Of a stretch of DNA of 64,000 nt, positions 751 to 63,205 are shown in pieces. How positions within the stretch are numbered: position 1 is the stretch's first letter; each line of letters opens with the position of its first letter. The position numbers and the translations under genes were made by a program. Under the pieces are notes generated by a model. It had not been told where the DNA came from. It did not search any database and worked only from the letters and a program-made list of their open reading frames with translations. Source of the DNA: Ostreococcus lucimarinus (lineage: Eukaryota); assembly GCA_000092065.1 (NCBI GenBank), contig CP000584.1. One strand, given 5' to 3'.

Positions 751-3700
751 ATGTCGGACGTCGCGGCGCGATGCGCGGACGCCCTCGAGCGCGCCGCGCG
801 CGGCGCCGAGGGCGCGCGCGCGCGCGCGGAGGCGGTCGAACTCGCGCGGGAGGTGCGACGCGACGACGCGACGCGACGAGACGCGACGACGACGCGACGA
901 CGACGCGCGACGCGACGCGATCGGTGACTGACGATGGATCGATGACGCGCGATGGCGATGCGAAGCTGAAAACGGGCGACGCGCGACGAGCGATGGAGGC
1001 GTGTCGATCGCTGTGCGCGCGGGGACGCGGGCTCGAGGCGCGACACTTCGGCTTCGGCGTGCTGCGGGACGTGGCGCGGACGCGCTGGCGAGGGCTGACG
1101 GCGGAGGAGCGGATGGAGATGGCGAGCTTGGCGCACGGGATGCTGCTGGAGGTGAGCGCGGGAGACGCGGCGGAGGCGTACGCGGTGAAATCAAAGGCGG
1201 CGACGCTCGTGGCGGAGACGGTGCGGCAGGAGGGCGCGAGTCTGTGGACGAGGTTGGTGCCGGATTTGGTGAGCATGACGACGGGGGACGAGGCGCAGAG
1301 GGCGGAGATGGGGGTGAACGTCATACGGTACGTCGCGGAGGACGTGGCGGTGTATAACGAGGACATGATAGGTGGGAAGATGCGAGAGTTGTTGGGCGGG
1401 TTGTCGAGCACGGTGGGGACGATTTTGCCGGCGATTTACGCGCTGATGGAGAAGCATTACACCAAGGCGACCGCGGCGACGGATCGCGAGGTGGCGAAAA
1501 GGCACGCCGCGGCGGTGAATGCGGCGCTCGGGGCGGCTGCGGTGTACAGCGAGTGGGCTCCGTTGGCGCCAATCATGCGGAGCGGTTTGATCGAGGCGTG
1601 TGGGATGCTCTTGGTGCGTCTAGTTTTCTTCGCGCGCGCGTCTTTTTTTTCTTCGTCCAACACACGAACACGCACGACGCCGATGATGATAATCCAATAA
1701 GGATCAACCATCCGAACATCCCTATGTGGAATTTTTGCTAGTACTGTCCGAGGCGCGCGTGAACGACAAAGCGCCGGTGTGTTTGTTTTTTTTTGACTCT
1801 CGACTGACTCGCGCCGGACGTCACGAACCGCAGGCGAGCGATGAATTTCGTTGCGCGGCGTGCGATGCTTTGAGACACGTCGTCGCTCGCCGTGCCAACG
1901 TCGCGCAAGGCGTGGACGAGCAAGATGATCAGGATATCATCAAGGGTTTGACGCTCGCGGCGAACGCGATGTCCACGGCGGCGGAACGCGTGATTTCGCA
2001 CCCGAACCAAGCCGATCTCGTGAGCGATCCAGAAGAAGTCATGTTCATCAAGAGACTGGGTGAGACGATGGCATCGATGGCGGGGTACCATCTCAGCACG
2101 ATCACGGACGAGAGCACGCGTAACGTGTTCCTCGAGCGATTGATGGGGCTGTCGCGATTTCCTAGTTTGGAGGTTTTGGACGTCGTTATCGGCGCGTGGC
2201 CGGTGATGCTCCGCGCCATGGGTGCCGAGCTTCCCAAGACGTTCGTGCGAGGACCACCGTCGCAAGGAGTTAATAATCCATACAACGCGCAAAAGCTCGA
2301 GCCGAACGGGATTCTTCCCATGGGCGCTCCCGAGGTTTTGCTCGAAATCTCGCGCGTGTGGCTCAACGCCGGCGCGGGCATCGCCTCTGGGTTTGACACC
2401 AATGGTATTCCGGGTAATAAAGCGGAAGATTGGGCCGATGAATTCGAAAGCGTGGTAGAGCTTCGCGAGACGTGGGTGCAGCTTCGGGCGAAATGGATGG
2501 ACATCACCAAGTTGTGCACGGCGTTGTGTCCGAGCAGCGCGGCGAATCAAGCGTCGCAAAACACGCTGATGGTGATTTCGTGGACGCAACCAGGCGGACC
2601 TTTGGCGAATAGCTCGGATGAAACGAAATGCGCGGCTCTGGAGGGTGCGACGTCGTTTTTAGAAGCCATCATGGTCGCTCTTCCGACCGAGGGTCCGTCG
2701 TTTATGGGCTTCGCTAGCACGTTGGAGGCGCTCCTCGGCCAGCTCGTGGCGATTGACTTCAAGGCGCCGCTGAGCAACGCGCAGGTGTCCAAATTGCTCG
2801 AAACGTTCGGCAAGTTTGCCCGGGCGCGTCCAGAAGTGGCTCTGACGATAATGAGTCGACTTTTTACGATTTTGAATGAATTGCCCGCCGACGTACAATC
2901 TGGAGCGCCGCCGGTGCGGCAGCGCGACATCGTCGCGAGCGGGCGCACGGGCCAGGCGGCGAGACAAAAAGTGTGCGCGGCGATTCTCATAGTTTGTTCA
3001 GCGGCCCCAACGGTACGTCAATCGATGCGCTCGACTGATTTTCGACACCAAAGCGCCTCTTAGAAAACTTGACGAGCCTTTTCACTCGTTTCGATTTATG
3101 CTGGGGCGCGAAATAAATTCGCGAACGCGGCTCGAGCGCAGCCTCTTCGGCGGCTTCTCTTCGATTCGTGGTCGCCACATATTTTTGACGCGCGCGATTC
3201 GAGATTACATCGACTGACGGACAACGCGAACGTGTTTCACATCACGGCAACAGGCTTTGAACCCACATCTGGAGGCTTTTGCCTCTCAAATCGAAACCAT
3301 GAAATCTTCCGGACGACTGAGCGGCGCCGAGCGAGGTTCGCTCGCCGAGGCGCTCCTCGCGGTTGCTGGGCCGTCCGGCGCGCAGCGCGTGCGCGAAGTT
3401 CTCGAGTGGCTGCTGTCATCCGTCCGAAATAGATGGGTTCCTGGGGGTGCGCTCTCGCCAGAGGTTGAGCATCTGTTGGCCATTTCTACGATGGCGGCGG
3501 GCGAAGCCGCCGGCGGAACGCAAGGCTTGTCGTCGGCGCACTGGGAGCTGTTTCACGACGTACAACTCACCGAGCGTTGTCTTCGACGGAGTTTGGGTGA
3601 TGCGGAAACAGCTAAAGTACCGACAGGTTTGATGAAGCCCGTGGACCCACCGCCACCGATATCGGAATGTCCGGCAGTGGATCATATGGAATGGGCCGTC

Positions 3701-5044
3701 TCGCTCGTCTCGTGCTTGGCGCGAAGAATTCACTCGTACTGGACTCCGCAAGGGAGCGCGGCGATGCACAGTTGCCAATTAGGCGCGGCGCTTGGAATGA
3801 GCCCCGAAGAGAAGGCGGCGTATTTGATTCACGGTCCGGCGCGAACGCAAGTTCTCAACGAGGAAGAACCCGGGACGAGCACGACGGCGAGCGCGTCTCG
3901 CGATTGGATGCGATGCCTGCGCGATTGCTCGTACTCGGTCTTCGCGTTGTTCAGCATTCACGCTCCCGCGGCATTTTACCCGAACCAAGCCTTAGCGAGC
4001 GCGTGTGGTGGGTCTATGTTAGCTGATCTGCCGTACATGGAGCTCAGGCACGTTCGTCAAGTCGTGCACGCGGCGGTGCGACCGATCATGGGGCGGTGTC
4101 CGGCGGCGCATCGCGCGATGTGGCAGACGGCGCTCGTGAACCCGCTGTGCGCGGCGCTGCACGACCGCCTCGCCAAGGAATGGGCGAACACGCGCGTGGT
4201 GAACGCGACCAAGGCGCAAGAAAGAGGAGATGAAGACGACGAGACGGATGGCGTCGAGGTGAATGATTTGATTTCTGAACGAATTCTTCGCGACATCACG
4301 CGGGACCACTGCGCGATGCTCGCCATCGTCGCGGCTCCCGAAGGCACGTTCGGGCGCAAGACCAAAGGGAGTGGGTTGACTGGTGTCATGGGTGATATGT
4401 CAAACACGCTATTAGGGACATCGTACGCCGGAGGGAAACACATATTGGATTGGATCGCGCACGGTGACGCTAACGCGATTCGCGCCGGCATCGCCACGGG
4501 GGCCGCCGCGCTCACGTGGGAAGACGCGGAATCCACCGGCCACGCCGTGAACTTTGTGCGCGGGCTGTGTGCCGCCGCCGGGAGCGCGAACGCACCGCAA
4601 GCGTTGCGAGACAACGTCGGTTCAGATGTCTTCCAAGCCACCCTCGTGGCGCTGACGCAAAGCTCCAACGCCGCGCACCAAGCCGACATTCTCGGCTTGA
4701 TTCGCGACATCATCATTTGGCTCACCCCGAAGACGCAATCCGTGGTACAAATCTTGATGAGTCTTCCCGGAATGACGCAGCAAGCCCTCGATTCATGCGT
4801 GCGAGAGCTCGGTGCCATGCGAAGCGAGAAGAAAGCCGCTAATTTCGTCAAGGACTTCTTAATCAACGCCAGCGGAGGAGGAGAAGAGCTTCGCGCCCTC
4901 GTCGAGGCGCGTTCGCAAACCAACAAGAGCGGCGTCGCGATTCAAATACCGAAGACCGCCCCGCGAAATCCAGTGAAGCAATCGACGAGTCCGGACAATC
5001 ACGGTTTCTCCGCCGAGGCGGCGTCCAACGCGATCGGACTGTGA
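751..5044 (+). CDS. XPO5: Exportin-5 / HASTY homolog, 4 coding exons: join(751..852,966..1613,1834..3012,3254..5044), 1239 aa
   Basis: Track ORFs 25..927 (3' part), 771..1700, 1726..3063 and 3257..5044 are consecutive pieces of one protein. The proposed joins keep the frame, and the total of 3720 nt is divisible by 3. The protein is collinear with plant HASTY as I recall it: KSKAATLVAETVRQEG, YVAEDVAVYNEDMIGGKMRELL, AVYSEWAPLAPIMRSGLIEACGMLL|ASDEFRCAACDAL across intron 2, and a C-terminal SEKKAANFVKDFL block like the XPO5 tail. The exon 1/2 junction is the least certain. Confidence 0.8.
853..965 (+). other. Spliceosomal intron (exportin-5 intron 1, 113 nt)
   Basis: GTGCGA donor at 853, ACTGAC at 927..932, AAG acceptor ending at 965. 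The splice joins ..ELAREV to LKTGDARRAMEAC.. in phase 0. Confidence 0.55.
1614..1833 (+). other. Spliceosomal intron (exportin-5 intron 2, 220 nt)
   Basis: GTGCGT donor, ACTGAC at 1803..1808, CAG acceptor at 1831..1833, phase 0. It is AT-richer with T-runs. Its removal reproduces the conserved HASTY junction. Confidence 0.85.
3013..3253 (+). other. Spliceosomal intron (exportin-5 intron 3, 241 nt)
   Basis: GTACGT donor, ACTGAC at 3213..3218, CAG acceptor at 3251..3253, phase 0. It removes the stop at 3061..3063. Confidence 0.8.
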
Positions 5045-5160
5045 GAACGTCCCGACGTTTCGTCCCGTCCCGCTCAGTCAACCGCCGTAGCGTTGTCGTA
5101 GACCCAACCGACTTAGACATCACTCTCGCGCGCGCCTCGATCGCTCGCCCGCGCGTAAAC

Positions 5161-6357: not shown

Positions 6358-6433
6358 GTAGCCAAAATGTCATGTCAAATTTCAGGTCTATGCGCGAGTC
6401 ACGACGAACGGTCGAGTGGACTGATCGCGGATT

Positions 6434-7768: not shown

Positions 7769-7844
7769 CGCGCAGACGAAACGACGCGGGGACGACGCGC
7801 GAGGACGCGCGGAATCGCTCGCCGCGAGCGAACGGCGGGACGCG

Positions 7845-8126
7845 ATGACGGATGAATTGGTGGTGTACGCGCTGGATGAGTTCGGGGGGACGCGAAGGCG
7901 CGAACGACGACGACGAGGGACGCGGGAGGGGACGACGCGCGGGACGCTCGACGGTTTGAGCGCGCGGACGAGACGCGCGAGCGAAGAAAAGGCGACGCGC
8001 GTGATGACGTGGCGCGTGGGCGCGGAAGCGCACGCGCAGACGGCGACGTTGGGGTTGTTGACGACGCCGAGAACGCGCGCGGGGACGCGACGGTCGAACG
8101 CAAACTTGCGGGCGTTGTTCGACTAG
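7845..8126 (+). CDS. Possible small hypothetical protein (93 aa)
   Basis: An ATG inside track ORF 7452..8126 gives MTDELVVYALDEFGG... The stop is followed by an AT-rich, terminator-like island at 8221..8300 shared with the convergent ORF 8350..9162. The protein is low-complexity and Arg-rich, with no recognisable family. Confidence 0.25.
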   Translation: MTDELVVYALDEFGGTRRRERRRRGTREGTTRGTLDGLSARTRRASEEKATRVMTWRVGAEAHAQTATLGLLTTPRTRAGTRRSNANLRALFD

Positions 8127-8349
8127 ACGGCGGGCGACAGCTGGCGAGACGTCGAATCGCGGGGAACGCGTCGACGTCCGATCGCGTCGACGTCCGATCG
8201 CGCGCGCGTCGGTGCGTGCGCTAGAAAACCTAATATGTATACAGCAACTGAATGGCTAGAATGTACTAGAATTTTGTCTCAATAAGAAAAAGGTACCGTA
8301 ACACCCCTCGCGGGTCTCGTCGCTCGAACGCCGCGCTTCGCGTCGCGAA

Positions 8350-9162
8350 TCAGACGATCACCTCTCCCGTCTCCTCGCGAATCACCGCCGCGATGTGCGC
8401 TTTCGAAACCGATCGATTCGACGGCGACGACGTCCACCGCGTGCCGTCGACCGCGCGCGCGTGCTCGAGGCGCGCCGTCGCTCGTCTCGCGACGTCCCTC
8501 GCGCGCGCCCTCGCCGCCGCCGCCAAAACTTTCCCCACGTCCGCGCGCACCCGCATTCCGCGCGCCATCCCTCGACTCACCACCGCTAATCTCGCGCGCA
8601 ATCGCGCCGCCGTGAGCGCTCCTCCCGTGGCGTCTCGACTCGCTTTCGATTCGCCCAGCGGCGCGCCCAGCGCCGTCCGCGTCTCGCTCGCCTTCCCCGC
8701 TCTCTCCGCCCGTCGGCTCCGTTTCTTCGTCACAACCGTCGCGAATCCGCTCCCGATCGCTCGTCGCACCGCGCCGCCATCGCTCGCGCGTCTCCGCGCG
8801 TCTTCGTTCGTCTTCGTCTCGCCCTCGTTCCCGCGTCGTCGTCCCGCGTCGTCCTCGTCCGCAGCCTCCGCGCCCGCTCGCGCCGCGCTCGCGCGCACCG
8901 CGCGCGCCAGCGTCTCCATCAGCGTCGCGTGCGTCGCCATCGCGCTCCGCGACGCGCCGAACGCGCGCGCCGCCTCGTCGTCGACGCGTTTCCGTCCGCG
9001 CGCGAACGTCTCCGCGCCCATTCGCTGCGCGTCGTCGCACGCCGCGCGCACCGCGCGCCAGTACGCCGCGAGGCACGCGCCGCGCGTCGCGTCGTCGAGT
9101 CGCGCGCGCAGGTCGACGAGCGCGTCGCGCGCGCGCGCGCGCGCGTCGGGCGGGCGCGACAT
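8350..9162 (-). CDS. Hypothetical protein (270 aa)
   Basis: ATG-started ORF with balanced composition (D/E/K/W/Y present). The overlapping plus-strand reading (the 5' part of track ORF 8393..10930) is Ala/Ser/Arg/Pro shadow-like. It ends next to the AT-rich island at 8221..8300. No family recognised. Confidence 0.45.
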   Translation of the reverse strand: MSRPPDARARARDALVDLRARLDDATRGACLAAYWRAVRAACDDAQRMGAETFARGRKRVDDEAARAFGASRSAMATHATLMETLARAVRASAARAGAEAADEDDAGRRRGNEGETKTNEDARRRASDGGAVRRAIGSGFATVVTKKRSRRAERAGKASETRTALGAPLGESKASRDATGGALTAARLRARLAVVSRGMARGMRVRADVGKVLAAAARARARDVARRATARLEHARAVDGTRWTSSPSNRSVSKAHIAAVIREETGEVIV

Positions 9163-9319
9163 GCCGAGACGCCGCGTCGGCGAGTCGCGACACTACGCGA
9201 CGCCGCGCGGCGCCCGCGTCTCCCGCGCGCGCGACGACCGCGTCCGAGGGTCCGCGCGAGCGCTCGCGCGCGCCTCGACCGCGCGCGCGTCGTCTCGGCG
9301 CGCGGGAGCCGCGCGCGCG

Positions 9320-16913: not shown

Positions 16914-18875
16914 ATGGATGCGCCGCGGCGACCGTCCGGCGGCGGCGACGACGACGACGCGACGACGGCGCGCGCGACGACGACGACGGGCGCGAGCGAC
17001 GGAAGCGAAAAGTACGTCTCCGCGGCGACGCGGGCGCGACTGCGCGCGCGCGGGATCGACGCGTTGAACGCGATGCAGCTCGCGGTGTGCGAGGCGGCGG
17101 TCGGACGACGCGCGGACGCGACGTGTCGAGCGCCGACGGGGAGCGGGAAGACGCTGGCGTACGTGCTGCCGATCGCGAAGATGTTGGAGAGGGCGGCGCG
17201 CGACGGATCGGGGGGAGGCGGAGGCGGAGGCGCGGTGCGGGCGATGGTGGTGACGCCGACGCGGGAGCTGGCGAGTCAGGTGCGGACGCAGTGCGAGCGG
17301 TACTGCGGGGAGGGGTCGAGCGCGCTGTGCGTGGGAGGGACGAGCGCGAAGGCGCAGGAGGACGCGATTCGTAAGGGTGGGGCGAAGATTGTCGTCGGGA
17401 CGCCGGGGAGGATGAAGGAATTCATCGATCGGGGGGTGATCGAACCGCGCGCGGTGGAGATTCAGGTGTTGGACGAAATCGACCGCCTCCTCGACGGAGG
17501 GTTTGAGGGCGAGATCGACGCGGTGATGCGACCGCCCGGGACGTGTCAGACGCTTTGTTTTTCGGCGACGATCTCTGCGGCGTTGTCGAGATTTTTAGAT
17601 CGTAAACTCGTGCCCGGGTACGCGGAGGTGGTCGTCGCCGGACGAGGCGGCTCAAACGTGGGCGGGATGGTGGAGCACTTGGCGTACGCCACGAAGTCGG
17701 GAGACGACGCCGTCGGATCGGCGGTCGTGGACGCGTTAGAGCACTACGCGGGTGAGCACGTGGATGGGAGAGTCGGTGGTCAGGCGATCGTGTTCACGGA
17801 GACAAAGTCCACCGCGGAACGCGTCAGGGCGATGCTGACGAATATGTTGACGACGGTGCGTGCCTTTGAATTTTTCTCTTCTTTTTCGATCGAGTCGGTC
17901 GTCGATGACGAACAAACTATTAAGGGATTTATGAGATTGGAATCCGTTCCATGTTCGTACCAATAGACTACAATTCTCCGAGACGCCGACCTTCGAGACG
18001 CAGACGCAGACGAGCGCGTTTGTTCAATTTTTTCTCGTCCGAGTTCCAGAGGATTGCATGAATAATTCTTATCTACATTCCCTGAGATACCGGTGATTAC
18101 ACCTTTCAAGATGATGGAACTGCTTTGCGTTAGTTTTTTGACGCGCGCGCTCGCTCGCGTTCGATGGCGATGAAGATACACCTTATTTCACATGTTAGAC
18201 TGTCGAGATCGAGGGGTGAGGATCCTTCGATCGATGTGCACAACAATTCCGCCGAGCCATCGAATGCGGGCGAGGCAACCGATCTGACCCTCGTGCGCTC
18301 GCGATGACTGATTACCTTTTCCTTCTCGCGCGTAGGAATTCGACACTGGCAAACGAACTCGGCGAGTGGCGTCTTTACACGGCGACTTGCCGCAACCGGC
18401 GCGCGACGCGACGCTCGCGAACCTTCGCTCTGGCGAAGTCGACGTGCTCGTCGCTACAGACGTCGCCGCGCGTGGTCTCGATTTACCCGGAGTCGAGCTC
18501 GTCGTGCACGCAGACATGCCCAAATCTGCAGACACTTACTCGCACCGCGCCGGACGCGCCGGGCGTCCAGGGTGCGCCGTGCCCGGCGTTTCGTTGCTCA
18601 TCTCCCGACCCGAGCTCGCGTCTGAAATCACGCGCCTCGAGCGCGAAGCCAAGGTTTCGATTCGTCGTCTAGTGTTCATTGGCGAACGCGAACGCGTCGT
18701 CGTCACGGGTGACTTGGGCGCGAGCGTTTCCACGCTTGAGCCTGAAAGTCGCGAAAGCGCGCCCGCGAGACGGGACGACAGTCTCATCGCCGACCATTTC
18801 GCTCGCTTTGCGGATGACATTCAAAACATCGCGACGTCGAAGAAGAAAGGGAAATCGAAATCGCGCGGCAAATGA
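16914..18875 (+). CDS. DEAD-box (DEID variant) ATP-dependent RNA helicase, join(16914..17855,18336..18875), 493 aa
   Basis: Motifs in order: APTGSGKT, TPTRELA, GTPGR, LDEIDRLL and SAT in exon 1, then ATDVAARGLD and HRAGRAGR in exon 2. The track start 16674 is TTG; the first ATG is 16914. Confidence 0.85.
17856..18335 (+). other. Spliceosomal intron (helicase, 480 nt, AT-rich)
   Basis: GTGCGT donor, ACTGAT at 18307..18312, a pyrimidine tract and a TAG acceptor at 18333..18335, phase 0. The splice joins ..MLTNMLTT to EFDTGKRTRRVASLHGDL.., which completes the helicase core. Confidence 0.85.
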
Positions 18876-30097: not shown

Positions 30098-30976
30098 ATG
30101 AAAGCTTCTCTCCTCCGACCATTGACATTGACCGCTCGACTTCGCGCTGTGCATCGCGTTAAGCCGCGTCTCAACACCGCTCGCTCGCTCGTCACTCGAG
30201 CCGACGCGACAGACCAATCAGGATCAGGCGCCTTCGTGCGAGGCCAAGCTCAGTTCTCGAAATTTTACCCAAGCGAAGCGCGCGATTTCACGTTCTCGAG
30301 ACACGTGATGCTCGCCGTCGACGGCACACATGCCTCTGAAGACGCCGCACGATGGGTCATTCAAAATGTCGTTCGCTCTGGAGATCTCCTGCACTTGATC
30401 CACGTCGCCGTTCCGGAATCGTTCGGTACGCTGCGTCGCGCGACGTTGTTCACTCGGAGAGACTGACCAAAACGACAAGGAGTTTACTACCTGGGCGCTC
30501 CCGGAACGGAGATCGCAGGAAGCGAGCTGGATTGGGAACGTAAAGACGAATTCTGGGCGAGTTGCATCCGCAGAACCGAACGCATGCTCGACGGCACCGT
30601 CACCCACATCATCGGCGAAGACGCCGACGCAGGGGAAGAGATGACGCCGTTTCGTCCGCCCATCGAACTCGATTGCATCTTGGATCAAACCTGGTACGCG
30701 TCACTTGATATACGTAACGCATATTTATCAACCTTCGACAGGGAGCCCGTTGGCGAGGTTTTACTCAACAAAGCGAAAGAGTCCAACGCCGAAATTCTCG
30801 TCGTCATCAAGCATCATAAGAGCTGGGTCCAAAAAATTTTCTCGGGATCGGTGAGCGAGTACCTGATCGACAAATCTGAGATCCCCATCCTCGTGTTTCC
30901 AGCCGCGATGCCCGCGTCTTCGGAAGACTTGATCTTAGGCGACGAAGACGATCAAAGTTCCAAAGGCGCGCGTTGA
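30098..30976 (+). CDS. Universal stress protein (USP / adenine-nucleotide alpha-hydrolase) family protein, join(30098..30425,30480..30693,30742..30976), 258 aa
   Basis: RHVMLAVDGTHASEDAARWVIQNVVRSGDLLHLIHV (USP N-terminal strand-helix) and AEILVVIKHHKSWVQKIFSGSVSEYLIDKSEIPILVF (USP C-terminal motif) lie in two track ORFs (30029..30466 and 30584..30976). Two mini-introns link them, and the total of 777 nt is divisible by 3. The N-terminus MKASLLRPLTLTARL is transit-peptide-like. Confidence 0.65.
30426..30479 (+). other. Mini-intron (USP intron 1, 54 nt)
   Basis: GTACGC donor, ACTGAC at 30462..30467, AAG acceptor ending at 30479. It removes the in-frame TGA at 30464..30466, and G|GA restores a Gly codon and the downstream frame. 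Confidence 0.55.
30694..30741 (+). other. Mini-intron (USP intron 2, 48 nt, frame-preserving)
   Basis: GTACGC donor, CGTAAC branch-like box at 30713..30718, CAG acceptor ending at 30741, all within an AT-rich stretch. Its length is a multiple of 3 with no stop, so retention would insert 16 aa. Confidence 0.45.
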
Positions 30977-31082: not shown

Positions 31083-31721
31083 TTAGTGGGCGAGGATTTC
31101 GCGCACGTACTTGTACGAGTTACTCCACACAGCCTTGCAAAGATCGATGGGCAAGCACTCTTGTTTGTTCTTGATGTTCTTGTCCGCACCATTTTGTAGC
31201 AAGAGATTGACGATTTCCACGTGTCCACGCATCGCCGCCCAGTGCAGCGCGGTGTTGTCGCCCATATCCAGCGCGTCCACGTCCGCGCCTTGCTCGAGCA
31301 TGAACTTCACCGTGTGATAGTGTCCGTTGTGCGCCGCGCGCTGCAACCCAGTATCTTTCATCAATCCGCTCTGTTGAATGTCAGCGCCTTCGTTGAGCAA
31401 CAGTTCGACAACCTTCGTGTGCCCGTTGCCCGCCGCGAGCACGAGCGGAGGATCCCCGCAGTGGTCGCACTCGTTAATCGGCGCGCCTTCGTGGATGTGC
31501 TCCTTCACCCAGTCGTAATAGCCATCGACGCAGTCGCGCCAAATATTGGATTTTTCCGGGATGAATCGTCCGGTCTGCGATGCGTTCGCGTTCGTTCGTC
31601 AGTCGTCGACTCGGGAATCGCGCACGAGGGGCCTCGGACGCGCGGACGCGATCCAGCGTCGTCGCCTTTGCGCGCCTTCGCCCGCGTCGCGAGTTTCACG
31701 CACCACGAGGTCGAACGGCAT
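31083..31721 (-). CDS. Small canonical ankyrin-repeat protein, complement(join(31083..31574,31704..31721)), 169 aa
   Basis: 33-residue ANK repeats (GDPPLVLAAGNGHTKVVELLLNEGADI.., DTGLQRAAHNGHYHTVKFMLEQGADV.., GDNTALHWAAMRGHVEIVNLLLQNGADK). The track ORF starts at GTG, and the frame stays open upstream to a CAG acceptor at 31575..31577. An 18-nt exon ATGCCGTTCGACCTCGTG followed by GTGCGT fits in phase 0. Confidence 0.6.
31575..31703 (-). other. Spliceosomal intron (ankyrin gene, 129 nt)
   Basis: On the minus strand: GTGCGT donor at 31703, ACTGAC at 31603..31598, CAG acceptor at 31577..31575. Confidence 0.55.
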
Positions 31722-39169: not shown

Positions 39170-40757
39170 ATGGAGACGGAGATGGAGCAACCGCTGGCGA
39201 ACCTGGCGCGCGCGCAGGACGAGCTGCGGAACGCGCTGAGCGCGAACCTCGGGGAGCTGCGGAGCGCGCACGACGGCGTCGCGGCGGCGGCGGCGAACGC
39301 GCTCAGGGAGCGCCGGCGCGAGCGCGAGGAGAGTCGAACGGCGCTCGAGCGAGAGGCGAGCGAGCGCGCGCGGTTGGAGACGAAGCTGACGCAGTGCGAG
39401 ACGGCGCTGCGGGAGACGAAGGCGGCGCTGGGAGAGGCGCGGAGCGAGGCGAAGGAGGTGCGCGAGAACGACGGCGAGGCGAGGCGAGACGCGATTCGAA
39501 CGCGGACGAGACGCCGACGAGTCTGGAGAAGCGGCGAGGGACGGGGGGGGGGGTAGGATGTGGGATTTCATGGTTTGGGACGGTTTGGGACGGTTCGGGA
39601 CGGGGCGCGGAGGAAGGCGCGCGCGCGGAGGAAGGCGAGGGGGGGGGCGACGCGATCGCGGCGCGAGGGAGAGAAGGAGCGACTGACGAACGACGCGGCG
39701 CGCGACGAATCGATAGGCGAACCAACAATCCGCGCAAGAAATCCGAGATTTGACGCAAAAGCTTCAGTTGACGCTCGAAGAGAAGAAGAAGAACGAAGAC
39801 GCGCTGAAACAACACGGGCAAGAGCTCAAGCAGCAGCTGATCATCATGCAAACCAAGCTCGAACGGGCGGGGGAGATGGACAAGGTGAAGGAGGAGCAGT
39901 TCGCGCAACAAGAAAACCGGCATAAAGATACGGTTGAGGAGTTCAAGAAGGCTCAAACCGAGCTCAAGCTGCAGCTCCAGGACGCGCTGGCGAAGATTGA
40001 AGCCGAGCACAAGGGGATGAAGGTGCAAGAAGCCGAGGTGCTGAAGCAACGCGACGTCATCAACCGTCTCGAGGCGAAGAATGCGAGCTTGATCGCCGAG
40101 CTCGACAACACGCGCGCGCAGTGCGTGCAATGGCAACGCGAGACCGACATGGCGAAGGCTGAGATGCAACAAGCGCGAAGCGAAGCTGAAGCCGCCAAGG
40201 AGGAGCGCATGAAGGAGGAAAAGCATCGAGGCATCGCCGAGAACGAAACCGCGGACTCGCGCCGAAAGGCGGCCGAGGCCACGGCGCTCGCCGCGGACGA
40301 GAAGCAAACCAGAAAGCTCGCCGACCAAGCGTTGGAAGCTAAGCAGAACGAATTAAAGGATCTCAAGCACAAGGCGCAAATGATGGAGAAGGATTACAAG
40401 GAAATGCTCACCGATGAAAAGCAGGCTCGGGCGCAACTGGAAGAAAACTACGAGACCTTGAAGCAAGATTCGGTGAACTTGTACAACGCGTACACGAGCT
40501 CGAACCAGCAAATCGAAGAGTACCGCATCGCGCTCGAGCGCGAAGCGCAAGAAGCGGCTGCTCTGCACGCCGCGCTCGCCAAGCAAAAGGAGGACGCCGC
40601 TCGAGACGCCGTGCGCTCTCGAAGCACGCGCGTCATCGCCCCTCCCGCTGGCTTCTTGGGCGGTTCATCTCCGTCTCCTAAGCAAGACGGACGCCGCGGT
40701 GGCGCCCGCATCGGCGAAATGGACGATATCCGATCGCCGCCATCCTTCGCAGACTAG
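39170..40757 (+). CDS. Coiled-coil protein, join(39170..39457,39717..40757), 442 aa
   Basis: Track ORFs 39128..39556 and 39750..40757 are both heptad-rich (E/K/Q/A/L) and join in phase 0. ATG 39170 has the best context (A at -3, G at +4); 39128 is an alternative. No family recognised. Confidence 0.6.
39458..39716 (+). other. Spliceosomal intron (coiled-coil gene, 259 nt)
   Basis: GTGCGC donor, ACTGAC at 39682..39687, TAG acceptor at 39714..39716. It contains G-runs and a ggtttgggacggtttgggacggttcgggacgg repeat. Confidence 0.65.
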
Positions 40758-52183: not shown

Positions 52184-52203
52184 GTGCTCGTCTAGTCAAT
52201 CAA

Positions 52204-54301: not shown

Positions 54302-54321
54302 TGCGTTCAATCAGAGCGTTG

Positions 54322-54326
54322 TTACA
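54322..54326 (-). terminator. Candidate TGTAA poly(A) signal for gene 54356..55813
   Basis: The plus strand reads ttaca, 30 nt after the minus-strand stop. The whole convergent spacer is only 54 nt. Confidence 0.3.
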
Positions 54327-54355
54327 TTTTAGCTATAGTTCGTAATAGAAACCAT

Positions 54356-55813: not shown

Positions 55814-56028
55814 CGCGTCGTCGTCGTCGGACGTCGCGGTGTCGTCGCGTCGCGCCGCGACGGACGACGCGACGTCGCGCGACGACGGCGATGGACGCGG
55901 ATCGAACCCACGCGCACACGGACCACGAGAAAGACCCGAAAAAGACGCGCGCCCTCGCGAGGCGATTGAAGATTGCAGATTGGCGACGCCGGGACGACGC
56001 ACACGCGGGCGCGGGGACGACGCGCGCG

Positions 56029-59000
56029 ATGTCGCCGCGAAACGCGGTCGCCGTCGCGCTGCTGAACGACCCGAACGAATGCGTCGTCGTCGACCTCGAC
56101 GCGCTGCCGACGGACGTCGAGGACGTCGCGAGCGTCCTCCAGGCGGAGCTCGCGCCGCTCGAGGCGTGGATCGAGGTGACGGAGGCGTACCTCAGGCGAG
56201 GCGACGCGCGAGGGTTCGAGACGCTGATGGAGATGGTGTGCGCGCCGGGTGCGTGGACGCGCGCGCCGCGACCGACGGGACGCGACGCGCGCGCGAACGA
56301 ACGAACGAACGAACGAAAGCGCGCGAACGTTTGCGCGATCGAGCGATGATGGATCGACGGGCTCAACGGCGTCGACCGAACGCGGTGACTGACGAGACCG
56401 CGCGCGCGGACGACGATAGAGATCGAGGAGGTGTATAGGGAACAAGCGTACGGACGCGCGGCGGTGCTGTGCCTGTACGCGTCGTATTGGGCGAATAGGG
56501 CGGCGCGGGAGACGGACGCGGTGAGCCGAGAGGAGGGGTTCATCAAGGCGGGCGCGTACTTGAATCAAGCGGCGGGAATTCACAGGAAACCGGAACAGAT
56601 CGTGGCGATCGGACGCGCGCACCTGGCGTTCGCGCGCGGGGCGACGGGAGAGGGCGAGAAACTCATCGACCAGGCGCTCGGGCTCAAGGACGACGGTAGG
56701 GATAACATCACGCCGATGCTGTGGAAGGCGGTTTTATTGTATAAGAAGGAGCGCTACCAAGACGCGTTGACGTGGTACAAACGCGCACTTCGCGCGTTTC
56801 CTTCCGCGCCCGCACCGGTGCGTTTGGGGATCGGGGCGTGCCAATACAAGCTGGGCGACTTCAAGACGGCGAAGCTTGCGTTTGCGCGCGTGCTCAAGTT
56901 GGATGAGCGCAACGTCGAAGCCATGCTCGGTTTGGCGCTGTGCGAATTGAGCTTGCATGACATTCGTAGTCAGCAACACTTGGATTCCGTAGCTGCGGCC
57001 ATGCGCCTGCTCGAGCGCGCTTTCATGCACGACCCTCACAACCAAGCGGTGAACAACGTCATCTCGGACAATTTGCTCATGGCGGATGATTACGAAAAAG
57101 TAGAGAAACTCACGCGACTGGCGCTTCAGAACAACGCGGAGACGCCGAGGAACCGAGCGAAGGCGGCGTTTAACCAAGCGCGCGCCTTGCACGCCCGAGG
57201 ACAGGTGCCTCAAGCGCAAGCGTTGTACTTGACGGCGACGAACCTCGACGAACACTACGTGCCGCCGTACTTTGGTTTGGGTCAAATCGCCCTTGCAAAG
57301 GGTGATGTGAAGTTAGCGTGGAACTACATGGATAAAGCACACGGGGAATTCGGAGAGTCCATGACCGTGACTAGAATGTTTGCCCATTTATGCGCGTCGA
57401 CTGGTAGAAGCGAGCAGGCGGCGGAGATGTTCCGCGAAGTAGTGAAACAGGGTGGAAACGACGTCGACGCGATGTTAGAACTCGGAGAACTCTTAGAGAC
57501 TCAAGATCCGAAGGCTGCGTTGAAGGCTTACAGTGCCGCCCTGAAAATGCTAGCTGCCAAGGGTGAAGAAGGGCCAATTACCGCCATCAAGAACAACATC
57601 GGCGTGTTGAACGTTCAGTTGGGCAAATTCGACGAGGCGCGCGAGGCGTTCACCGAGGCGCTGCAGGCGCTCGGTGGCGATGCCGATCAACTCGAGGGCA
57701 AACTGAAAGGTGCTAAGGCGAAGAAGGCGTTACAGCCAGGCGTTGCGCCCATCGCGTTCAACTTGGCTTTATTAGAGGAACAGCAAGGAAACAACGCCGC
57801 GGCGGAGGCACGATACGACGCCATCCTCGCCGCGCAACCGGATTACATTGATTCCATCTTGCGTCAAGCGAAAATTCGGGCCGAACGGGGCGATTACGAC
57901 ATGGCGCTCGAACGCACGAATGAAGCCATTGCGGCGAAAAGTGATAGTGCCGATGCCCTCGCCCTCGCTGGTTGGGTTTTGCTCAAGGCAAAGCGATGGA
58001 GTGAGGCGGAGCAACAATTCGCCGCGCTGCGCAACTTGCCCAAACCCGACGCCGCGGCGAATGCGAAGGAAAAAACATTGACGCACGACGAGTATGCGAT
58101 GGTAAGCGCGGCGAACGCGGCGTATTACAGCGCTATCAAAGAGGGTGTGCTCAAGCGAAACGATCCCAAGGTGCTCAAGCGCGAGGAGGAGCACTACGAA
58201 CGGGCTTACTCGTTGTTCCAAAAGACGCTCCAGAAGAATGGTTCCAACGTCTACGCCGCTAATGGTCTCGGGATTATTCTTGCTGAGCGAGGGCGAATCG
58301 ACGAAGCCAAGACGGTGTTTCAGATCGTGCAAGAAGGCATGGCTGCGAAAGGCTCAATCAACCCGGATATTCTCATCAACCAAGGTCACGTGTACTTGGC
58401 CAAGGCGCAATATGTGCAGGCGAGCAAGCTTTACGAGCGCGCTCAAAGCCAGTTCTACTTTAACCAGAACGAAAATGTCATGCTTTATCAAGCGAGGGCG
58501 CATTATGAGAATGGCAACTTGGAAGAAGCGCGCAAGATTCTTCGCAAAGCGTTGTTAATCGCGCCCTGGAACCACAGAATTCGATTCAACTTGGCGTACG
58601 TCATTCAAGAGATGGCGCAGCGCACGTTGAACAGAACGATGAAGAGCACGAGCTCGGACGGACGTTTGGCGCAAGTGGAAAGTGCGATAGAAGACTTGAC
58701 CACTGCGCTCAAGCTCTTCGAGCAATTGCAAACGCTTGGGAACCAGGCGGAGTTTGGTTTCGACGCCAAACGCACGAGCGTTCACGTGTCCTTCTGCAAG
58801 CAAGCGCTCACCAAGTCCAAACCGCACTTGGAAGCGGCGCAGAAGGAAGAGGCTTCGATCTCTGCAGCGAAAAACGCGCAACTCACCGCGCGCCGCGCGA
58901 TCGAAGAAGGCCGCGCCGCCCAAAAAGCTGCCGAAGAACTCGCCAAGGAGACGCACGCCAAGGAACTCGAAGCCATCGCTGCGCAGTCTGAGCGTCGCTT

Positions 59001-59379
59001 CAAAGAAAGCCAAGCGCGATGGATGTCAGAACAAGCTGTCGAGCGACCGACGAAGAAAGGTGCCAAGGGTCTCGGTGCGGCTCCTGTCGGTGAGGCCACG
59101 AGCGATCTTTCCGAAGACGATGACGAGCCCGCACCCGAGACGCGCGCGCCGCCCACTGCCGAGGAACTCGCGCGTCAGAAAGAAGCCCTCGCGGCGGCCG
59201 GTTTAGCCGACAGCGACGACGAAGACGAAGACGAAGACGAAGACGCGCAACCGAGCGCCGACGTCGAAGCACCGGCAGAAAAGAAGCGTTCCGCTGACGA
59301 AACTGACGAAGCCCAAGCTGAAGCCGCCGCTCCCAAGCGTCGCCGACGCGCCGTCGTCGACGACGACGACGACGAGTGA
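56029..59379 (+). CDS. CTR9: CTR9 (Paf1 complex TPR subunit), join(56029..56235,56422..59379), 1054 aa
   Basis: Exon 1 (VVVDLDALPTDVEDVASVLQAELAPLEAWIEVTEAYLRRGD) matches the CTR9 N-terminus (EVIEIDLDQLP..ILK.E...L.IW..LA.EYY..G). It is followed by about 16 TPR units and an acidic/basic tail, as in CTR9. Confidence 0.85.
56236..56421 (+). other. Spliceosomal intron (CTR9, 186 nt)
   Basis: ACTGAC at 56388..56393 and a GAG acceptor ending at 56421. The only phase-compatible donor is GTGTGC at 56236, which is off-consensus. The intron contains (GAAC)4. Confidence 0.6.
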
Positions 59380-59506
59380 TCGCGTCTTCTCCGTTCGACA
59401 CGTTCACACCGCGCGCTCGCGCGCACCGCGCTCGCAACGCGCGCTTAGTATATCATCAATACATCGTATCACACCACCCAACCCGACCACTCGACGTCTG
59501 CGCCCT

Positions 59507-59560
59507 CTCAAAATTCAAATCCTTGGCGCGGCTGTTTGAATTCCAAATTCAAACCGGCGC
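59507..59560 (+). promoter_or_regulatory. Motif cluster upstream of the claspin-like gene: AAATTCAAA x2, inverted TTTGAATT, and GC cores TTGGCGCG / CCGGCGCC
   Basis: Direct reading: ctcaaaattcaaatccttggcgcggctgtttgaattccaaattcaaaccggcgcc, 64-117 nt upstream of ATG 59624. TTGGCGCG resembles an E2F site (TTTSSCGC). Confidence 0.35.
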
Positions 59561-59623
59561 CCGCACACGCACGCGCGCGCGGCGCGCGGGCGAGCGTTGA
59601 CGACGACGATCGCAACGACGACG

Positions 59624-61822
59624 ATGACGACCGTGGACGCATCGATGCCCGCCGCGATGCCGAGCGGCGCCGCGACGACCACGGAAACGATCGACGTTCC
59701 GGACGTTGGCGCGGTCGACGACGACGCGCGACGACGCGCGACGACGCGCGACGAGAGCGCGAGCGAGGACGAAGATGAGGAATATCTCGGACGGATCCGT
59801 CGACGCGCGCGCACGCGCGAGGATGAGAGCGAGAGCGAGGAGGACACGCGAGAGGGCGACGGGTCAGAGGACGGCGAAGGCGAGGCGCCGCGAGGGAAAG
59901 GCGAAGGACGACGACGACGATTGAAACGCGCGAATGGTGAACGCGTCGAACGAGACGTTGATGGAAGTGACTCGAGCGATTCGAGCGAGAGCGAATTGGA
60001 TGAGGAGATGATGATGGAACGTAAGTACGCCGAGACGGGGCGGTTGACGGATGAAGACGTCGAGGACGAGGCAGAGGAGACCGTTCGTGGAGCGTATGAC
60101 GAAGTGGGTGTGGGATATTCGTCCGATTCGTCGCTTGGATCACCCGTAGCGGGCGATGATGTGCCGGCGAGCGGTAGTCGGCCGAGGAAAATGACGAAGA
60201 AGCAGATGAAGAAGGAACGAGACGCGTTGGCCAAGGAACAGGAACGCATGATGAAACGAGCGCAAAGACGGGCGAAATTCCCGGGCTGGGACGCCGAAGT
60301 GGTGCGCGTGTCTTATTTACCGTTGATTGACAAGCTTCGCGCTGCGGTGGCGCACATCAAGCACGACGGACTAGTTATGGGAGAAGACTCGCCGGCAAAA
60401 GAGGCCGACAAAGCCACAAAGGCGGACACGCCCACCGTCGCCCCGCTTGCAGACTCCGAAGATGACGAAGCGGACGACGGTGAACCTAAAGCAAAGACAG
60501 CCGAAGTCGTAGAAATCGATCTCGATGACGACGAAGAAGAAGATGACGATGCATTACTCAAGGAAATCTTGGCAAAGAAAGCAGTCGCGGTGGCGCAAAA
60601 GCCATCCGAAACGGTGATGACTGAGGAACCAACGCTTGTCGAACAAGAGGACGGAGAGGACGCGGATGACGAGTCCGAAGAAGACAGCGAAGATGATTTA
60701 TCCGAGGAGGAAGATATGACGGAAGAAGAGCGTCGAATGCAGCGTAAGGCGGCGAAGAGATTCATCAAGGCGGATAGAAGATCGCACAGAGCCGCCGCCA
60801 CCACGGGCGACGTCTTTGAAGATGAAGCGGAGATGTCCGAAGATGGTGGGCACACCGACGACGATGATGATGATGATATTCAGGATGACGTTGACGATGT
60901 CGCCGACGCTATCGATTTCCGCGAAGAACAGCCCGAAGACGAGCGCCGTGCCGCGGCTCGTGCGCGCGCCTTCGCAAAGGAGCAGCAAGCCCAAGACGAC
61001 GACGAGCTCGAAAAGATGAAGCAGATGGTTGGTAACGGTTTCAAACGCAAAAAGAATGGTCTGTTCGACTCTGAAGACGCGTGGCAGCGTAAGAGACGCA
61101 ATGCTAACGGCGAAGAGGAATCTGATTCGGATGACGTCGACTATGGTCCCGTCATCGAGCGTCCCGAAGAGGCCGTCGAATTATCGGACGACGACGACGG
61201 TGAGTGGCGCGAACAAGCCAAGCGTCGTCGTGCCCTGCACGAATCCGGTACACAAGAGTCTCTTGAGCTACCAAATGCGTTCGAAGGTAACGTCAGTCAA
61301 GAAGTCTACGCCGCCATCAAGGCTCCTCGCATGAATTCGTTCCACAGCGAGTCGCAAGACACCACGCAAGCGGAAGGATGGGAAGCCCCGCTCCCTCGAG
61401 CGCAATCTATGCCCGCGGCTTTGGTCCGTACGTCGAGCCATCTCGGCAGCGGAAGTTCTGCAATGCTTGCCCGTCAATCATCGAAAACGTTCTTGGGTAA
61501 GAAACGACAAGTCACCAAGGCGACTGGCGCGCTGCTCGGCAACAGCCAGGCTTCACGCTCATACGTCTTCGGCCGAACGGATAGCCAAAGTCAATGGGGA
61601 GGCGACGATTCGGGTCCCGCGACCACGTTCAAGGAAATCGGTCGCGATGAAGATGCGCGCGCTTTCGGTTCGACGAACATGGGACCAACGAGACCGAACG
61701 CGTCCGAACCGAAGAAGAAGCCATCCTTATTCGCGATGGTGAGCCAGACCGCGGGCGAGAACAACGCCCGCCCTCGAGCGGAGGACGTTCAAAAAGCGAT
61801 GAAGGCAGCGTCGGGGAAATGA
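59624..61822 (+). CDS. Claspin / Mrc1-like replication-checkpoint mediator (acidic, 732 aa)
   Basis: The acidic core DVFEDEAEMSEDGG...DDELEKMKQMVGNGFKRKKNGLFDSED resembles the MRC1-like domain pattern (F.EeEAEeSeDE ... dl.kll.di.tG.lRrkrg). The rest is D/E/S/K low complexity. The first ATG is 59624 (the track start is TTG). Confidence 0.5.
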   Translation: MTTVDASMPAAMPSGAATTTETIDVPDVGAVDDDARRRATTRDESASEDEDEEYLGRIRRRARTREDESESEEDTREGDGSEDGEGEAPRGKGEGRRRRLKRANGERVERDVDGSDSSDSSESELDEEMMMERKYAETGRLTDEDVEDEAEETVRGAYDEVGVGYSSDSSLGSPVAGDDVPASGSRPRKMTKKQMKKERDALAKEQERMMKRAQRRAKFPGWDAEVVRVSYLPLIDKLRAAVAHIKHDGLVMGEDSPAKEADKATKADTPTVAPLADSEDDEADDGEPKAKTAEVVEIDLDDDEEEDDDALLKEILAKKAVAVAQKPSETVMTEEPTLVEQEDGEDADDESEEDSEDDLSEEEDMTEEERRMQRKAAKRFIKADRRSHRAAATTGDVFEDEAEMSEDGGHTDDDDDDDIQDDVDDVADAIDFREEQPEDERRAAARARAFAKEQQAQDDDELEKMKQMVGNGFKRKKNGLFDSEDAWQRKRRNANGEEESDSDDVDYGPVIERPEEAVELSDDDDGEWREQAKRRRALHESGTQESLELPNAFEGNVSQEVYAAIKAPRMNSFHSESQDTTQAEGWEAPLPRAQSMPAALVRTSSHLGSGSSAMLARQSSKTFLGKKRQVTKATGALLGNSQASRSYVFGRTDSQSQWGGDDSGPATTFKEIGRDEDARAFGSTNMGPTRPNASEPKKKPSLFAMVSQTAGENNARPRAEDVQKAMKAASGK

Positions 61823-61826
61823 TTTA

Positions 61827-61831
61827 TGTAA
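61827..61831 (+). terminator. Candidate TGTAA poly(A) signal
   Basis: It lies 5 nt after the stop at 61820..61822. Confidence 0.3.
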
Positions 61832-62014
61832 CGAAGATAAGCGCACGATGATTTGAATAAGGTGATTTTTACTGCAAACATTCACTCTAAACACACCTCA
61901 TCTCACTAATGCAAAGAGCGCGACGCGCTCTTCCGCTCCTATCGCCACGAGTTTCTCGACACACCTAACTGATTGAACACGTAACCGAGTCGTATTGATT
62001 GAATACCTTCCCGT

Positions 62015-63205
62015 TTACATCTCCATTTCCTTACCAACGTACGGCTTGGCCATGTCTTCGTCATCCTTCGGGGTGTGGATGACGACGGTGTCCGGAATCG
62101 GCGTCGACGGACCGTTGCGGCCCTTCGGATCGTGGTCGAGCATAATCTTCACGCGCATACCGATGGTACCCTGGCGAAGCAAGGCGTGGCGAGTGCACGA
62201 AACGATGTATTCGCGCACCGGGTTACCGGAAGAAATCATGTAACCGTCCTTGAACTTCATCGCCTTGGCGCGTTGGCCGCGAAGCTTACCAGAGACGACG
62301 ACCTCCGCACCCTTGGCGCCAGCCTCCATGATGTATCGAAGCACGCCGTAGCACGCACTGCGCACGCAAAAAAAATGTCAATCGTCAGTCACGCGTTCGT
62401 CTACGTCGACCACATCATCTCGCGTTCGCGTCGCGCGCGCCAAAGCCCTCTCGTTTTGCCGCGTCGTCGCGTTTGAAAACCTCTCAAAGCCCTAACACGT
62501 GCGCCCATCGCACGCGCTCGGACGCCTCGTCCGTCGCTTCTGCGTCCGCGTCGCGCGTCGACGCGGACGACTAAAATTAACGCGCGACCACTCTTTGCGA
62601 TCGATCGAAGAACACACGCACCGTCGAACGGCGAGACCGCCGAGAAGCTTGTATCGCAAAGACTCGCACTGCGCGATGGCGCACAACCCGCGGTTGTTCA
62701 CCCGTTCCGCGTACAGCTCCACCGAACCTTCCGCCATCTGGAACCTGCGCTGCACGAGCGTGGTCAACTCACGAATGCGTCGACCCTTTTCGCCGAGCAC
62801 GTTCGCCGTGCGCGTGGCGCGGATGATGATTTCCGTGCGCATTGGGGTCTGTCGGACTTCCACGCCCGAGTACCCATCCTCGGCGAGCTCGCGGACGAGC
62901 ATTTCGTTGAGCTCGGCGAAGAAGACGCCGTCGGCGACGAACTGCGAGTCGATGTCGACGAACGACGTAATGTTAGTCTTCGTTCGCGTGCGTCCGCGCT
63001 CGCGATCGACGGCGTCCGCGCGCGCGCGCGTCGACTCGCGATCGATCGATCGCGACGGTGACCCTAAGCGCGACGCCGGAGCGGCATCGCGCGTTGCGGC
63101 GCCGCGCGACGCGCGACGCGAGTCACGGCGCGCGCTCGGGCGCAACGATAGATCCGCGCGCGTTCGACGCACCTTGCGCTTCTTGCTTATAGCGGTGGCC
63201 ACCAT
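62015..63205 (-). CDS. RPS3: 40S ribosomal protein S3 (uS3), complement(join(62015..62357,62622..62941,63173..63205)), 231 aa
   Basis: The spliced product [11 protein letters not shown]|[67 protein letters not shown]...[13 protein letters not shown]|[35 protein letters not shown].. is collinear with human RPS3 throughout. The total of 696 nt is divisible by 3. Confidence 0.97.
62358..62621 (-). other. Spliceosomal intron (RPS3 intron 2, 264 nt)
   Basis: On the minus strand: GTGCGT donor at 62621, ACTGAC at 62389..62384, a T8 tract, CAG acceptor at 62360..62358. It is phase 2 (CG|T gives Arg). Confidence 0.9.
62942..63172 (-). other. Spliceosomal intron (RPS3 intron 1, 231 nt)
   Basis: On the minus strand: GTGCGT donor at 63172, ACTAAC at 62977..62972, CAG acceptor at 62944..62942, phase 0. 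Confidence 0.9.

Follow-up and report, generated by a model that had tools for sequence, protein, structure and literature searches.

Twelve introns with a constrained donor, branch-site and acceptor grammar in a 64-kb stretch of the Ostreococcus lucimarinus genome

The stretch of DNA analysed in this study (hereafter the window) comprises 64,000 nucleotides (nt) of nuclear DNA of Ostreococcus lucimarinus, a very small green alga of marine waters, contig CP000584.1 of GenBank assembly GCA_000092065.1, and contains 12 introns that share an unusually uniform set of splicing signals. It is densely occupied by eukaryotic genes, those recognised by Pfam including exportin-5 (XPO5), a DEAD helicase, an ALG9-like protein, class I fumarase, ORC1/CDC6, a nucleoside phosphatase of the GDA1/CD39 family, PIG-N, RED, Rcd1, CTR9 and RPS3, and its GC content is 55-67%. 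In exact-sequence look-ups, three window proteins (RPS3, a CUE-domain protein and Rcd1) were identical to accessions of O. lucimarinus CCE9901; the Rcd1 open reading frame (ORF), which is intron-less, corresponds to XP_001417448.1. The gene order of the window is collinear with that of O. tauri chromosome 4, and the window is therefore assigned to the "normal" portion of the genome, which is intron-poor, and not to the half of chromosome 2 that is atypical; this assignment was made through synteny with O. tauri and not read from the O. lucimarinus chromosome number itself.

For each of the 12 introns the donor, the box containing the presumed branch A and the acceptor were located, and spliced models were then built. 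The junctions were checked by means that do not depend on the motifs: conservation of the junction itself or of a micro-exon, orthologues that have no intron, a close relative from which the intron is precisely absent, length differences that break the reading frame, and Pfam profiles that run on across the junction. Support for the junctions in O. lucimarinus thus consists of homology, comparative data and annotated proteins. The contigs used for comparison were a metagenome lineage 92-93% identical to the window (L014, L015 and L020; 15.5 kb of alignment), two related species for XPO5 (L007 and L010), an O. tauri-like contig that served as the CTR9 orthologue (L006), and L011 and L025, which were taken as distant relatives with coding identity of ~72% and a different gene order. 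Exact look-ups of the spliced ankyrin, USP (three variants) and coiled-coil models gave no match in the sequence collection, and the introns of these genes were therefore tested comparatively. A chimeric query composed of junction-spanning protein pieces provided useful matches for XPO5, ankyrin and coiled-coil, with no USP or CUE relatives among the 13 matches listed.

All 12 introns are of the GT-AG type, and exon position -1 is G in every one of them. The donor is GTGCG in nine and GTACG in three, and after the correction of the CTR9 intron described below every donor fits G/GT[GA]CG (a slash marks a splice junction), GTGCGT being the donor of seven introns. Relative entropy at donor positions +3 to +6 was 1.06, 1.69, 1.69 and 1.03 bits (n=12). 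An exact ACTGAC box was present in nine of the 12 introns (75%), at positions 927, 1803, 3213, 22799, 30462, 39682 and 56388 and, on the minus strand, at 31603 and 62389, and GACTGACG was found in seven (58%). The other boxes are ACTAAC at 62977 (-), ACTGAT at 18307 and CGTAAC at 30713. There is one such box per intron, in the majority GACTGAC(G). An earlier reading of the window made from its letters alone (the sequence-only reading) had given the same tally of boxes, and its distance of 13-36 nt from the branch A to the acceptor G was reproduced exactly, the distance being 24-36 nt in 10 introns. In all 12 introns the first AG that is usable beyond the box serves as the acceptor, and CGCAG is used in four.

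Neither word is enriched in the window as a whole, with 15 sites against 19.6 expected for ACTGAC and 67 against 63.5 for GTGCGT. The placement of the signals, on the other hand, is a real effect, far in excess of what chance would give. Of the 15 ACTGAC sites, nine are sense-strand sites within the introns (2,503 nt in all), where 0.29 would be expected (Poisson P = 3e-11), and the chance of at least nine of 12 introns having the box within a zone of 30 nt ahead of the acceptor is ~2e-20. A single AG, 4 nt from the branch A, was observed between box and acceptor against 12.6 expected (P = 5e-5). The composite motif alone, used with no frame information, gave 11 matches in the window compared with 3.3 +/- 1.8 in simulated sequence. 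Two of the 11 (12603 and 59302) are false and lie in coding sequence, and the motif is thus predictive only together with the reading-frame context. With this restriction, the predictive power claimed for it by the sequence-only reading was real, since both of the predictions that it named, exon 1 of XPO5 and an 18-nt exon of the ankyrin gene, are conserved in relatives, as presented below.

The XPO5 gene has three introns on the plus strand. Intron 1 (853-965; 113 nt; GAG/GTGCGAC ... GACTGACG ... AAG; 34 nt from branch A to acceptor G) follows the predicted exon 1 (751-852), whose peptide, MSDVAARCADALERAARGAEGARARAEAVELARE, has counterparts in L007 and L010 with an intron at the same point. 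The junction reads ..ELARE/LKTGD.. in the window, ..ALAEE/LKRGD.. in L007 and ..ELAHE/LRSGE.. in L010, where the introns are 167 nt (MASDAAERCAEVLRAGARGLGGAEARARAVALAEE/GTAGGG...CAG/LKRGD) and 127 nt (...ARARAVELAHE/GTGAGG...ACTGAC...CAG/LRSGE), respectively. An unspliced ORF starting from ATG 771 or 942 is a real alternative, which is disfavoured by the conserved exon 1 peptide and by the presence of the intron in these two species. The donors of the introns in the relatives (introns at L007 9813-9979 and L010 48-174) break the GT[GA]CG rule, and the box in L007 is ATTGAC and not ACTGAC, so that in the relatives this intron follows the grammar less strictly.

For XPO5 intron 2 (1614-1833; 220 nt; TTG/GTGCGTC ... 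GACTGACT ... CAG; 26 nt), the upstream ORF stops at codon 1698-1700. The junction ..CGMLL/ASDEF.. is kept in the relatives P0057 and P0058, whose read-through ORFs give, at the same place, ...CGMLL followed by VR... (a GTGCGT-type donor) and later ...Q/ASDEF (a CAG acceptor). In the case of intron 3 (3013-3253; 241 nt; ACG/GTACGTC ... GACTGACG ... CAG; 36 nt), the upstream exon matches the Pfam Exportin-5 profile up to position 298 and the downstream exon takes it up again from 298, and L007 has the donor GTGCGTG at the same codon.

Profile continuity also supports the single intron of the DEAD-box helicase gene (17856-18335, +; 480 nt; ACG/GTGCGTG ... GACTGATT ... TAG; 24 nt). Helicase_C formed one continuous match (11-110; 96.4 bits) to the spliced model, compared with 40-110 (82.7 bits) for exon 2 alone. 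The CUE-domain gene intron (22536-22828, +; 293 nt; phase 2; CGG/GTGCGTA ... GACTGACG ... CAG; 25 nt) yields upon removal a protein identical to XP_001417166.1. In the 92%-identical L014 and L020 this intron is 297 nt with the donor GTACGT, and the exon flanks align without gaps. For the coiled-coil gene intron (39458-39716, +; 259 nt; GAG/GTGCGCG ... GACTGACG ... TAG; 30 nt), exon 1 and the junction ..EAKE/ANQQS.. are conserved in L023 (..QAKD/GTGCGT..AGACTGACGA..CAG/ANQSY) and L024 (..QAKD/GTGCGT..GGACTGACC..CAG/ANAAY), both with an ACTGAC box.

The RPS3 gene on the minus strand contains intron 1 (62942-63172; 231 nt; AAG/GTGCGTC ... GACTAACA ... CAG; 31 nt) and intron 2 (62358-62621; 264 nt; ACG/GTGCGTG ... 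GACTGACG ... CAG; 27 nt), and its spliced protein is identical to XP_001417450.1. The junctions KKRK/FVADG (intron 1) and LAVRR/ACYGV (intron 2) match human RPS3. Both introns occur at the same positions in O. tauri, intron 1 as GTACGC..GACTGACA..CAG and intron 2, of 247 nt, as GTACGT..GACTGACC..CAG, each with an ACTGAC box. A telomere-repeat-like word, TTAGGGTC, was also observed in RPS3 intron 1 (63060-63067, -), and the O. tauri intron (L005, about 2160-2175) has GACCCTAAA in the opposite orientation; such words resemble the "telo-box" found near ribosomal-protein genes in plants.

The CTR9 intron is the one place where the boundaries had to be changed. Three in-frame splice models are possible for this gene. 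The O. tauri-like orthologue in L006 (about 4480-4500, -) is intron-less at this place and reads ...AFESLMTMLCGPEIETHYAHD... (quoted also as FESLMTMLCGPEIETHY, ...MLCGPEIETHY). Joining the donor GTGCGT at 56249 to the acceptor TAG at 56419 gives ...GFETLMEMVCAPEIEEVYREQ... (FETLMEMVCAPEIEEVY, ...MVCAPEIEEVY), which aligns to L006 without gaps, and no other pair reproduces the L006 reading. The sequence-only reading had chosen the donor GTGTGC at 56236, which with the acceptor GAG at 56421 would lose five residues and pass over the first AG; its remaining 11 donors stand as given. Based on the intron-less orthologue and the gap-free fit, the intron is placed at 56249-56419 (+; 171 nt; phase 1; CGG/GTGCGTG ... 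GACTGACG ... TAG; 27 nt), and there is thus no off-consensus donor among the 12. The absence of this intron from L006 means that intron content differs between two Ostreococcus species at CTR9. In the O. tauri assembly GCA_000214015.2 the corresponding locus (L005 5228-7387, about 5050-5070) shows an inversion and a gap of Ns across CTR9 relative to both the window and L006, and the gene calls there (720 aa and 511 aa, with no Pfam hits) look like wrong-strand or chimeric models.

The ankyrin-repeat gene intron (31575-31703, -; 129 nt; GTG/GTGCGTG ... GACTGACG ... CAG; 24 nt) is preceded by a first exon of only 18 nt (31704-31721, -), ATGCCGTTCGACCTCGTG, encoding MPFDLV. This micro-exon recurs in the two distant relatives, as MPFDLV (ATGCCCTTCGACCTCGTG/GTGCGC) in L011 and as MPFDLI (ATGCCATTTGATCTTATT/GTACGT) in L025. 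The ORFs of the relatives all have Q (CAG) right before (N/T)G(K/R)F(I/V)P(E/D)KS, and the intron is 135 nt in L014, L015 and L020.

Two short introns were found in the USP-like gene on the plus strand. Reading through intron 1 (30426-30479; 54 nt; TCG/GTACGCT ... GACTGACC ... AAG; 13 nt) leads to an in-frame stop, the TGA within ACTGAC. Its length is 54, 57, 68 or 71 nt across related contigs, and the differences of 11-17 nt are confined to the segment between the box and AAG, the changes 3' of AAG appearing synonymous. The alternative acceptor CAG at 30518 is destroyed in L014 and L015. Length variation was seen even among contigs that are ~99% identical (L013, L016, L021 and L022; 54, 57 and 68 nt), with 71 nt in the 92% lineage. 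The window carries an allele lacking 14 nt in the region 30467-30479, which accounts for the unusually short branch-to-AG distance of 13 nt.

Intron 2 of the same gene (30694-30741; 48 nt; 42% GC; CTG/GTACGCG ... ACGTAACG ... CAG; 24 nt) is AT-rich, in frame and stop-free, and its branch word, CGTAAC, is the weakest among the 12. In L014, L015 and L020 and in the distant L011 it is missing precisely (0 nt); the L014 lineage retains intron 1. In the 15.5-kb alignment it represents the sole length difference >24 nt, and the Pfam Usp profile matches in one stretch (6-141) when it is removed and in two when it is retained. It could possibly be a very recent gain in the O. lucimarinus lineage, which we regard as doubtful; an intron loss with 3' bias in the sister lineage accounts for the same data. 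The comparison covered the L014 lineage and L011, L025 being without the neighbouring USP gene. If the gain were true, the alleles with and without it would form a natural pair in which to study how a genome of otherwise rigid intron grammar tolerates a new intron that departs from the consensus.

A scan for missed introns, as proposed by the sequence-only reading, was run in the window and covered leftover motif matches, split or N-terminally short ORFs and all length differences of at least 4 nt in the alignment to the 92% lineage; no further coding intron emerged from it. Several candidates were rejected. GTGCGT 12553 ... ACTGAC 12603 lies within a continuous ORF reading ..GELTAD.., ACTGAC 61297 (-) is antisense to a long ORF and has no frame support, and GTGCGT 28658 ... 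ACTGAT 28784 ... 28817 (160 nt) would break the ORC1/CDC6 frame. For GCTGAC 16519 (-) no upstream exon or intron is called for, since an ATG of the GRAM gene itself lies a short way upstream of the box, and CGTAAC 24931 (-) would fall inside the fumarase coding sequence. Nor is there support for the intron annotated in the O. tauri orthologue of gene 59597-61822, since one collinear protein match runs across it and the O. tauri assembly is disturbed at this place by a gap and an inversion. An apparent length difference of 5 nt at 27055 proved to be an in-frame (GAC)n expansion. The repeat concerned, a poly-Asp microsatellite at 27034-27060 (+) with a difference of 6 nt from the 92% lineage, belongs to gene 26411-27436, the C-terminus of which matches an MCM3-like winged-helix domain. 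Between the divergent ankyrin (-) and VTT-domain (+) genes there is an AT-rich island of ~90 nt, with GTGCGT at 8212, CGTAAC at 8297 and CAG at 8353. The segment 8212-8353 (+) could be a candidate intron in the 5' untranslated region of the VTT-domain gene or a promoter element that the two genes share.

Three of the 12 introns host small nucleolar RNAs (snoRNAs), all on the plus strand. XPO5 intron 2 contains a C/D snoRNA (1678-1755) orthologous to Ot-CDsno34 (68 of 76 positions identical to the published sequence), and XPO5 intron 3 an H/ACA snoRNA (3050-3183) orthologous to Ot-HAsno35 (104/130). Three C/D snoRNAs lie in the helicase intron, at 17899-17985 (Ot-CDsno36; 76/83), 18043-18120 (Ot-CDsno37; 65/72) and 18165-18256 (Ot-CDsno38; 84/90). 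Rfam at gathering thresholds returned nothing in the window and missed all five, which surfaced with permissive thresholds and by comparison to the published O. tauri sequences. The one in XPO5 intron 3 gave a weak full-length SNORA46 match (25.9 bits, E = 0.066), and 18162-18262 matched snoR64 (36.2 bits, E = 1.9e-5). In XPO5 introns 2 and 3, conservation across three species, including L007 and L010, is limited to the snoRNA blocks and does not extend to the remaining intron sequence. The same order was reported for the intron-hosted snoRNAs of O. tauri in the syntenic hosts ostta04g00910 (XPO5) and ostta04g00970 (helicase), the single intron of the latter being the published host of snoRNA cluster 3, and the O. 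lucimarinus copies are 80-93% identical to that set (NAR Genom Bioinform 2020; PMC7671301). The gene ostta04g00910 is listed as "Unknown" in the host table of that study, and the window gene (751-5044, +) matches Pfam Xpo1 and Exportin-5 (E = 7.5e-71). The hosting of five snoRNAs is a likely reason for the retention of these three introns in so compact a genome.

On the homology and comparative data that set their boundaries, all 12 introns are judged to be real. They are best regarded as ordinary major-type (U2-dependent) spliceosomal introns of the sequence-constrained class that characterises the intron-poor bulk of the O. lucimarinus genome, i.e., all of it except about half of chromosome 2, and we put the probability of this reading at about 95%. 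Canonical U1 (5'-AUACUUACCUG) would read G/GUGCGU by pairing at -1, +1, +2, +5 and +6; position +3 would form a wobble and position +4 would be mismatched. The box ACUGAC would pair with GUAGUA of U2 (A-U, C-G, U-A, G.U, bulged A, C-G), so that the nucleophile of the branching step would be the penultimate A. The 3' site would be the first AG downstream, as in yeast, a choice that would account both for the zone without AG and for the weakness of the polypyrimidine tracts. With few introns in the genome, selection or low spliceosome abundance may hold each of them near one optimal word, as hypothesised by Irimia and Roy.

Several points weigh against this reading or leave it incomplete. The penultimate-A branch point and first-AG scanning are presumed from established spliceosome biology, and the small nuclear RNA (snRNA) sequences used are those of O. 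tauri and not of O. lucimarinus. Canonical U1 leaves the strong +4 C unexplained and canonical U2 the G flanking the box on its 5' side, so that an account in terms of base pairing is not complete; these two nucleotides may be read by proteins or by U5/U6. Donor +3 G and +4 C and the 5' box G are strongly preferred in the presence of canonical U1 and U2. Two AAG acceptors and one branch-to-AG distance of 13 nt are both unusual, and the CGTAAC box of the 48-nt intron fits the consensus poorly.

The mismatch of canonical U1 at +4 C brings up the possibility that a second or co-evolved spliceosome, in which U1, U2 or U6 is altered and which is dedicated to this intron class, recognises the atypical words (+3 G, +4 C; G-ACTGAC-G). 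This possibility was raised by Irimia and Roy (2008; PMC2483917), and compensating U1 changes were reported in Entamoeba and Mastigamoeba (Roy and Bowser 2022). However, the recognition elements of the O. tauri snRNAs are canonical, with U1 5' end ATACTTACCTG, U2 GTAGTA (GUAGUA), U6 ACAGAGA and the U5 loop (PMC7671301, supplement). Moreover, a study restricted to the 5' site found GYGCGY donors together with a single U1 of standard pairing region in each of five Mamiellales, including two Ostreococcus (Roy and Bowser, bioRxiv 2022, 10.1101/2022.06.08.495308), i.e., the same donor class as in the window and the same conclusion on U1 as from O. tauri. No snRNA gene was found in the window by Rfam at gathering thresholds. 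Given the canonical published O. tauri snRNAs, compensating changes in snRNAs do not account for the unusual donor, and we regard an altered or second spliceosome as very improbable.

The uniformity could also be a circular artefact of picking GTGCG...ACTGAC...AG among the many GT and AG pairs of GC-rich DNA. The absence of overall GTGCGT enrichment, the two coding matches of the composite motif, the existence of more than one in-frame splice model in three genes (CTR9, USP intron 1 and XPO5 intron 1) and the wrong CTR9 junction of the sequence-only reading would all be in line with it. However, each junction was re-derived without the motif, from intron-less orthologues (CTR9 and USP intron 2), conserved exon peptides (XPO5 intron 1, ankyrin and coiled-coil), Pfam profiles (XPO5 intron 3, DEAD and USP), annotated proteins (RPS3 and CUE) or frame-breaking lengths (USP intron 1 and CUE). 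The sole correction shifted a donor towards the consensus and not away from it, and the same signals were published from introns confirmed by expressed sequence tags (ESTs; PMC2483917). This explanation is already largely refuted, and it is even less probable than altered snRNAs. The least credible is that the introns are alike as copies of one mobile family like the introner elements of Micromonas: such elements exist in Mamiellales (PMC4540971), and the USP intron 2 and CTR9 introns do vary in presence between close relatives, but in an all-against-all comparison of the 12 introns matches of no more than 23 nt were found, which are GC-rich low-complexity runs or the branch box, so that no sequence beyond the signals is shared, and in addition lengths vary from 48 to 480 nt and most positions are common to O. 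tauri or more distant relatives.

The reading as constrained U2-type introns is no new discovery. The observation, its interpretation and the idea of genome-wide logos are already in the 2008 paper on the same species (PMC2483917), in which the donor, the branch word, the spacing and the link to intron-poverty were all published, and the question of snRNA compensation has been answered in the negative. Mildly new are only the presence/absence of the 48-nt USP intron in closely related wild lineages, the derived 13-nt allele of USP intron 1 and the O. lucimarinus copies of the five snoRNAs. The practical value lies in gene annotation, where the grammar combined with the reading frame recovers micro-exons and first exons that ORF-based gene callers miss, like the ankyrin 18-nt exon and XPO5 exon 1. 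It also helps in choosing between splice models, and in CTR9 it was the donor fitting the consensus that proved correct.

Among known systems, U12-type (minor) introns have the donor [AG]TATCCTT and the branch word TCCTTAAC near the 3' end, words to which no donor or box among the 12 bears a likeness. The short introns of the chromosome-2 type (40-65 bp; PMC2367439), which have weak signals and are devoid of the canonical donor and branch words, have a size range that includes USP intron 1 (54 nt) and USP intron 2 (48 nt, 42% GC). USP intron 1 has an exact GACTGAC; USP intron 2 has a GTACGC donor and only CGTAAC. The introns of hemiascomycete yeasts are alike in belonging to an intron-poor genome and in having near-invariant donor and branch words, a weak polypyrimidine tract and a first-AG acceptor (cf. 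PMC2483917). The yeast words themselves, GTATGT and TACTAAC, were found in none of the 12 donors and none of the 12 boxes, the only ACTAAC being preceded by G. The term "yeast-like" used in the sequence-only reading is therefore apt for the rigidity and not for the words GTGCGT and ACTGAC, and the resemblance is convergent rather than one of shared family.

The closest system is the constrained intron class of O. lucimarinus itself. Irimia and Roy (PLoS Genet 2008; PMC2483917) analysed 560 EST-confirmed introns, of which 319 were outside chromosome 2. In the latter, ACTGAC was present in 87.2% and GACTGACG in 66.5%, the donor had 4.8 bits with the atypical consensus GTGCGTG, the branch-to-AG distance showed a broad peak at about 20-35 bp, and CGCAG was the preferred acceptor. 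The same study reported a pattern across 50 species in which intron-poor genomes converge on strong branch signals. The sequence-only reading had held such rigid grammar to be typical of an intron-poor genome and had proposed genome-wide logos as a check; both the 12 introns and the published logos, with their strong branch signal, bear this out. The window introns agree with that class in species, genome compartment, donor word, branch word, distance range and the tendency to CGCAG. Their frequencies are slightly lower (n=12), with 75% vs 87% for ACTGAC and 58% vs 66.5% for GACTGACG, and they include introns as short as 48 and 54 nt, the acceptor AAG in two cases and a single branch-to-AG distance of 13 nt; nothing essential differs.

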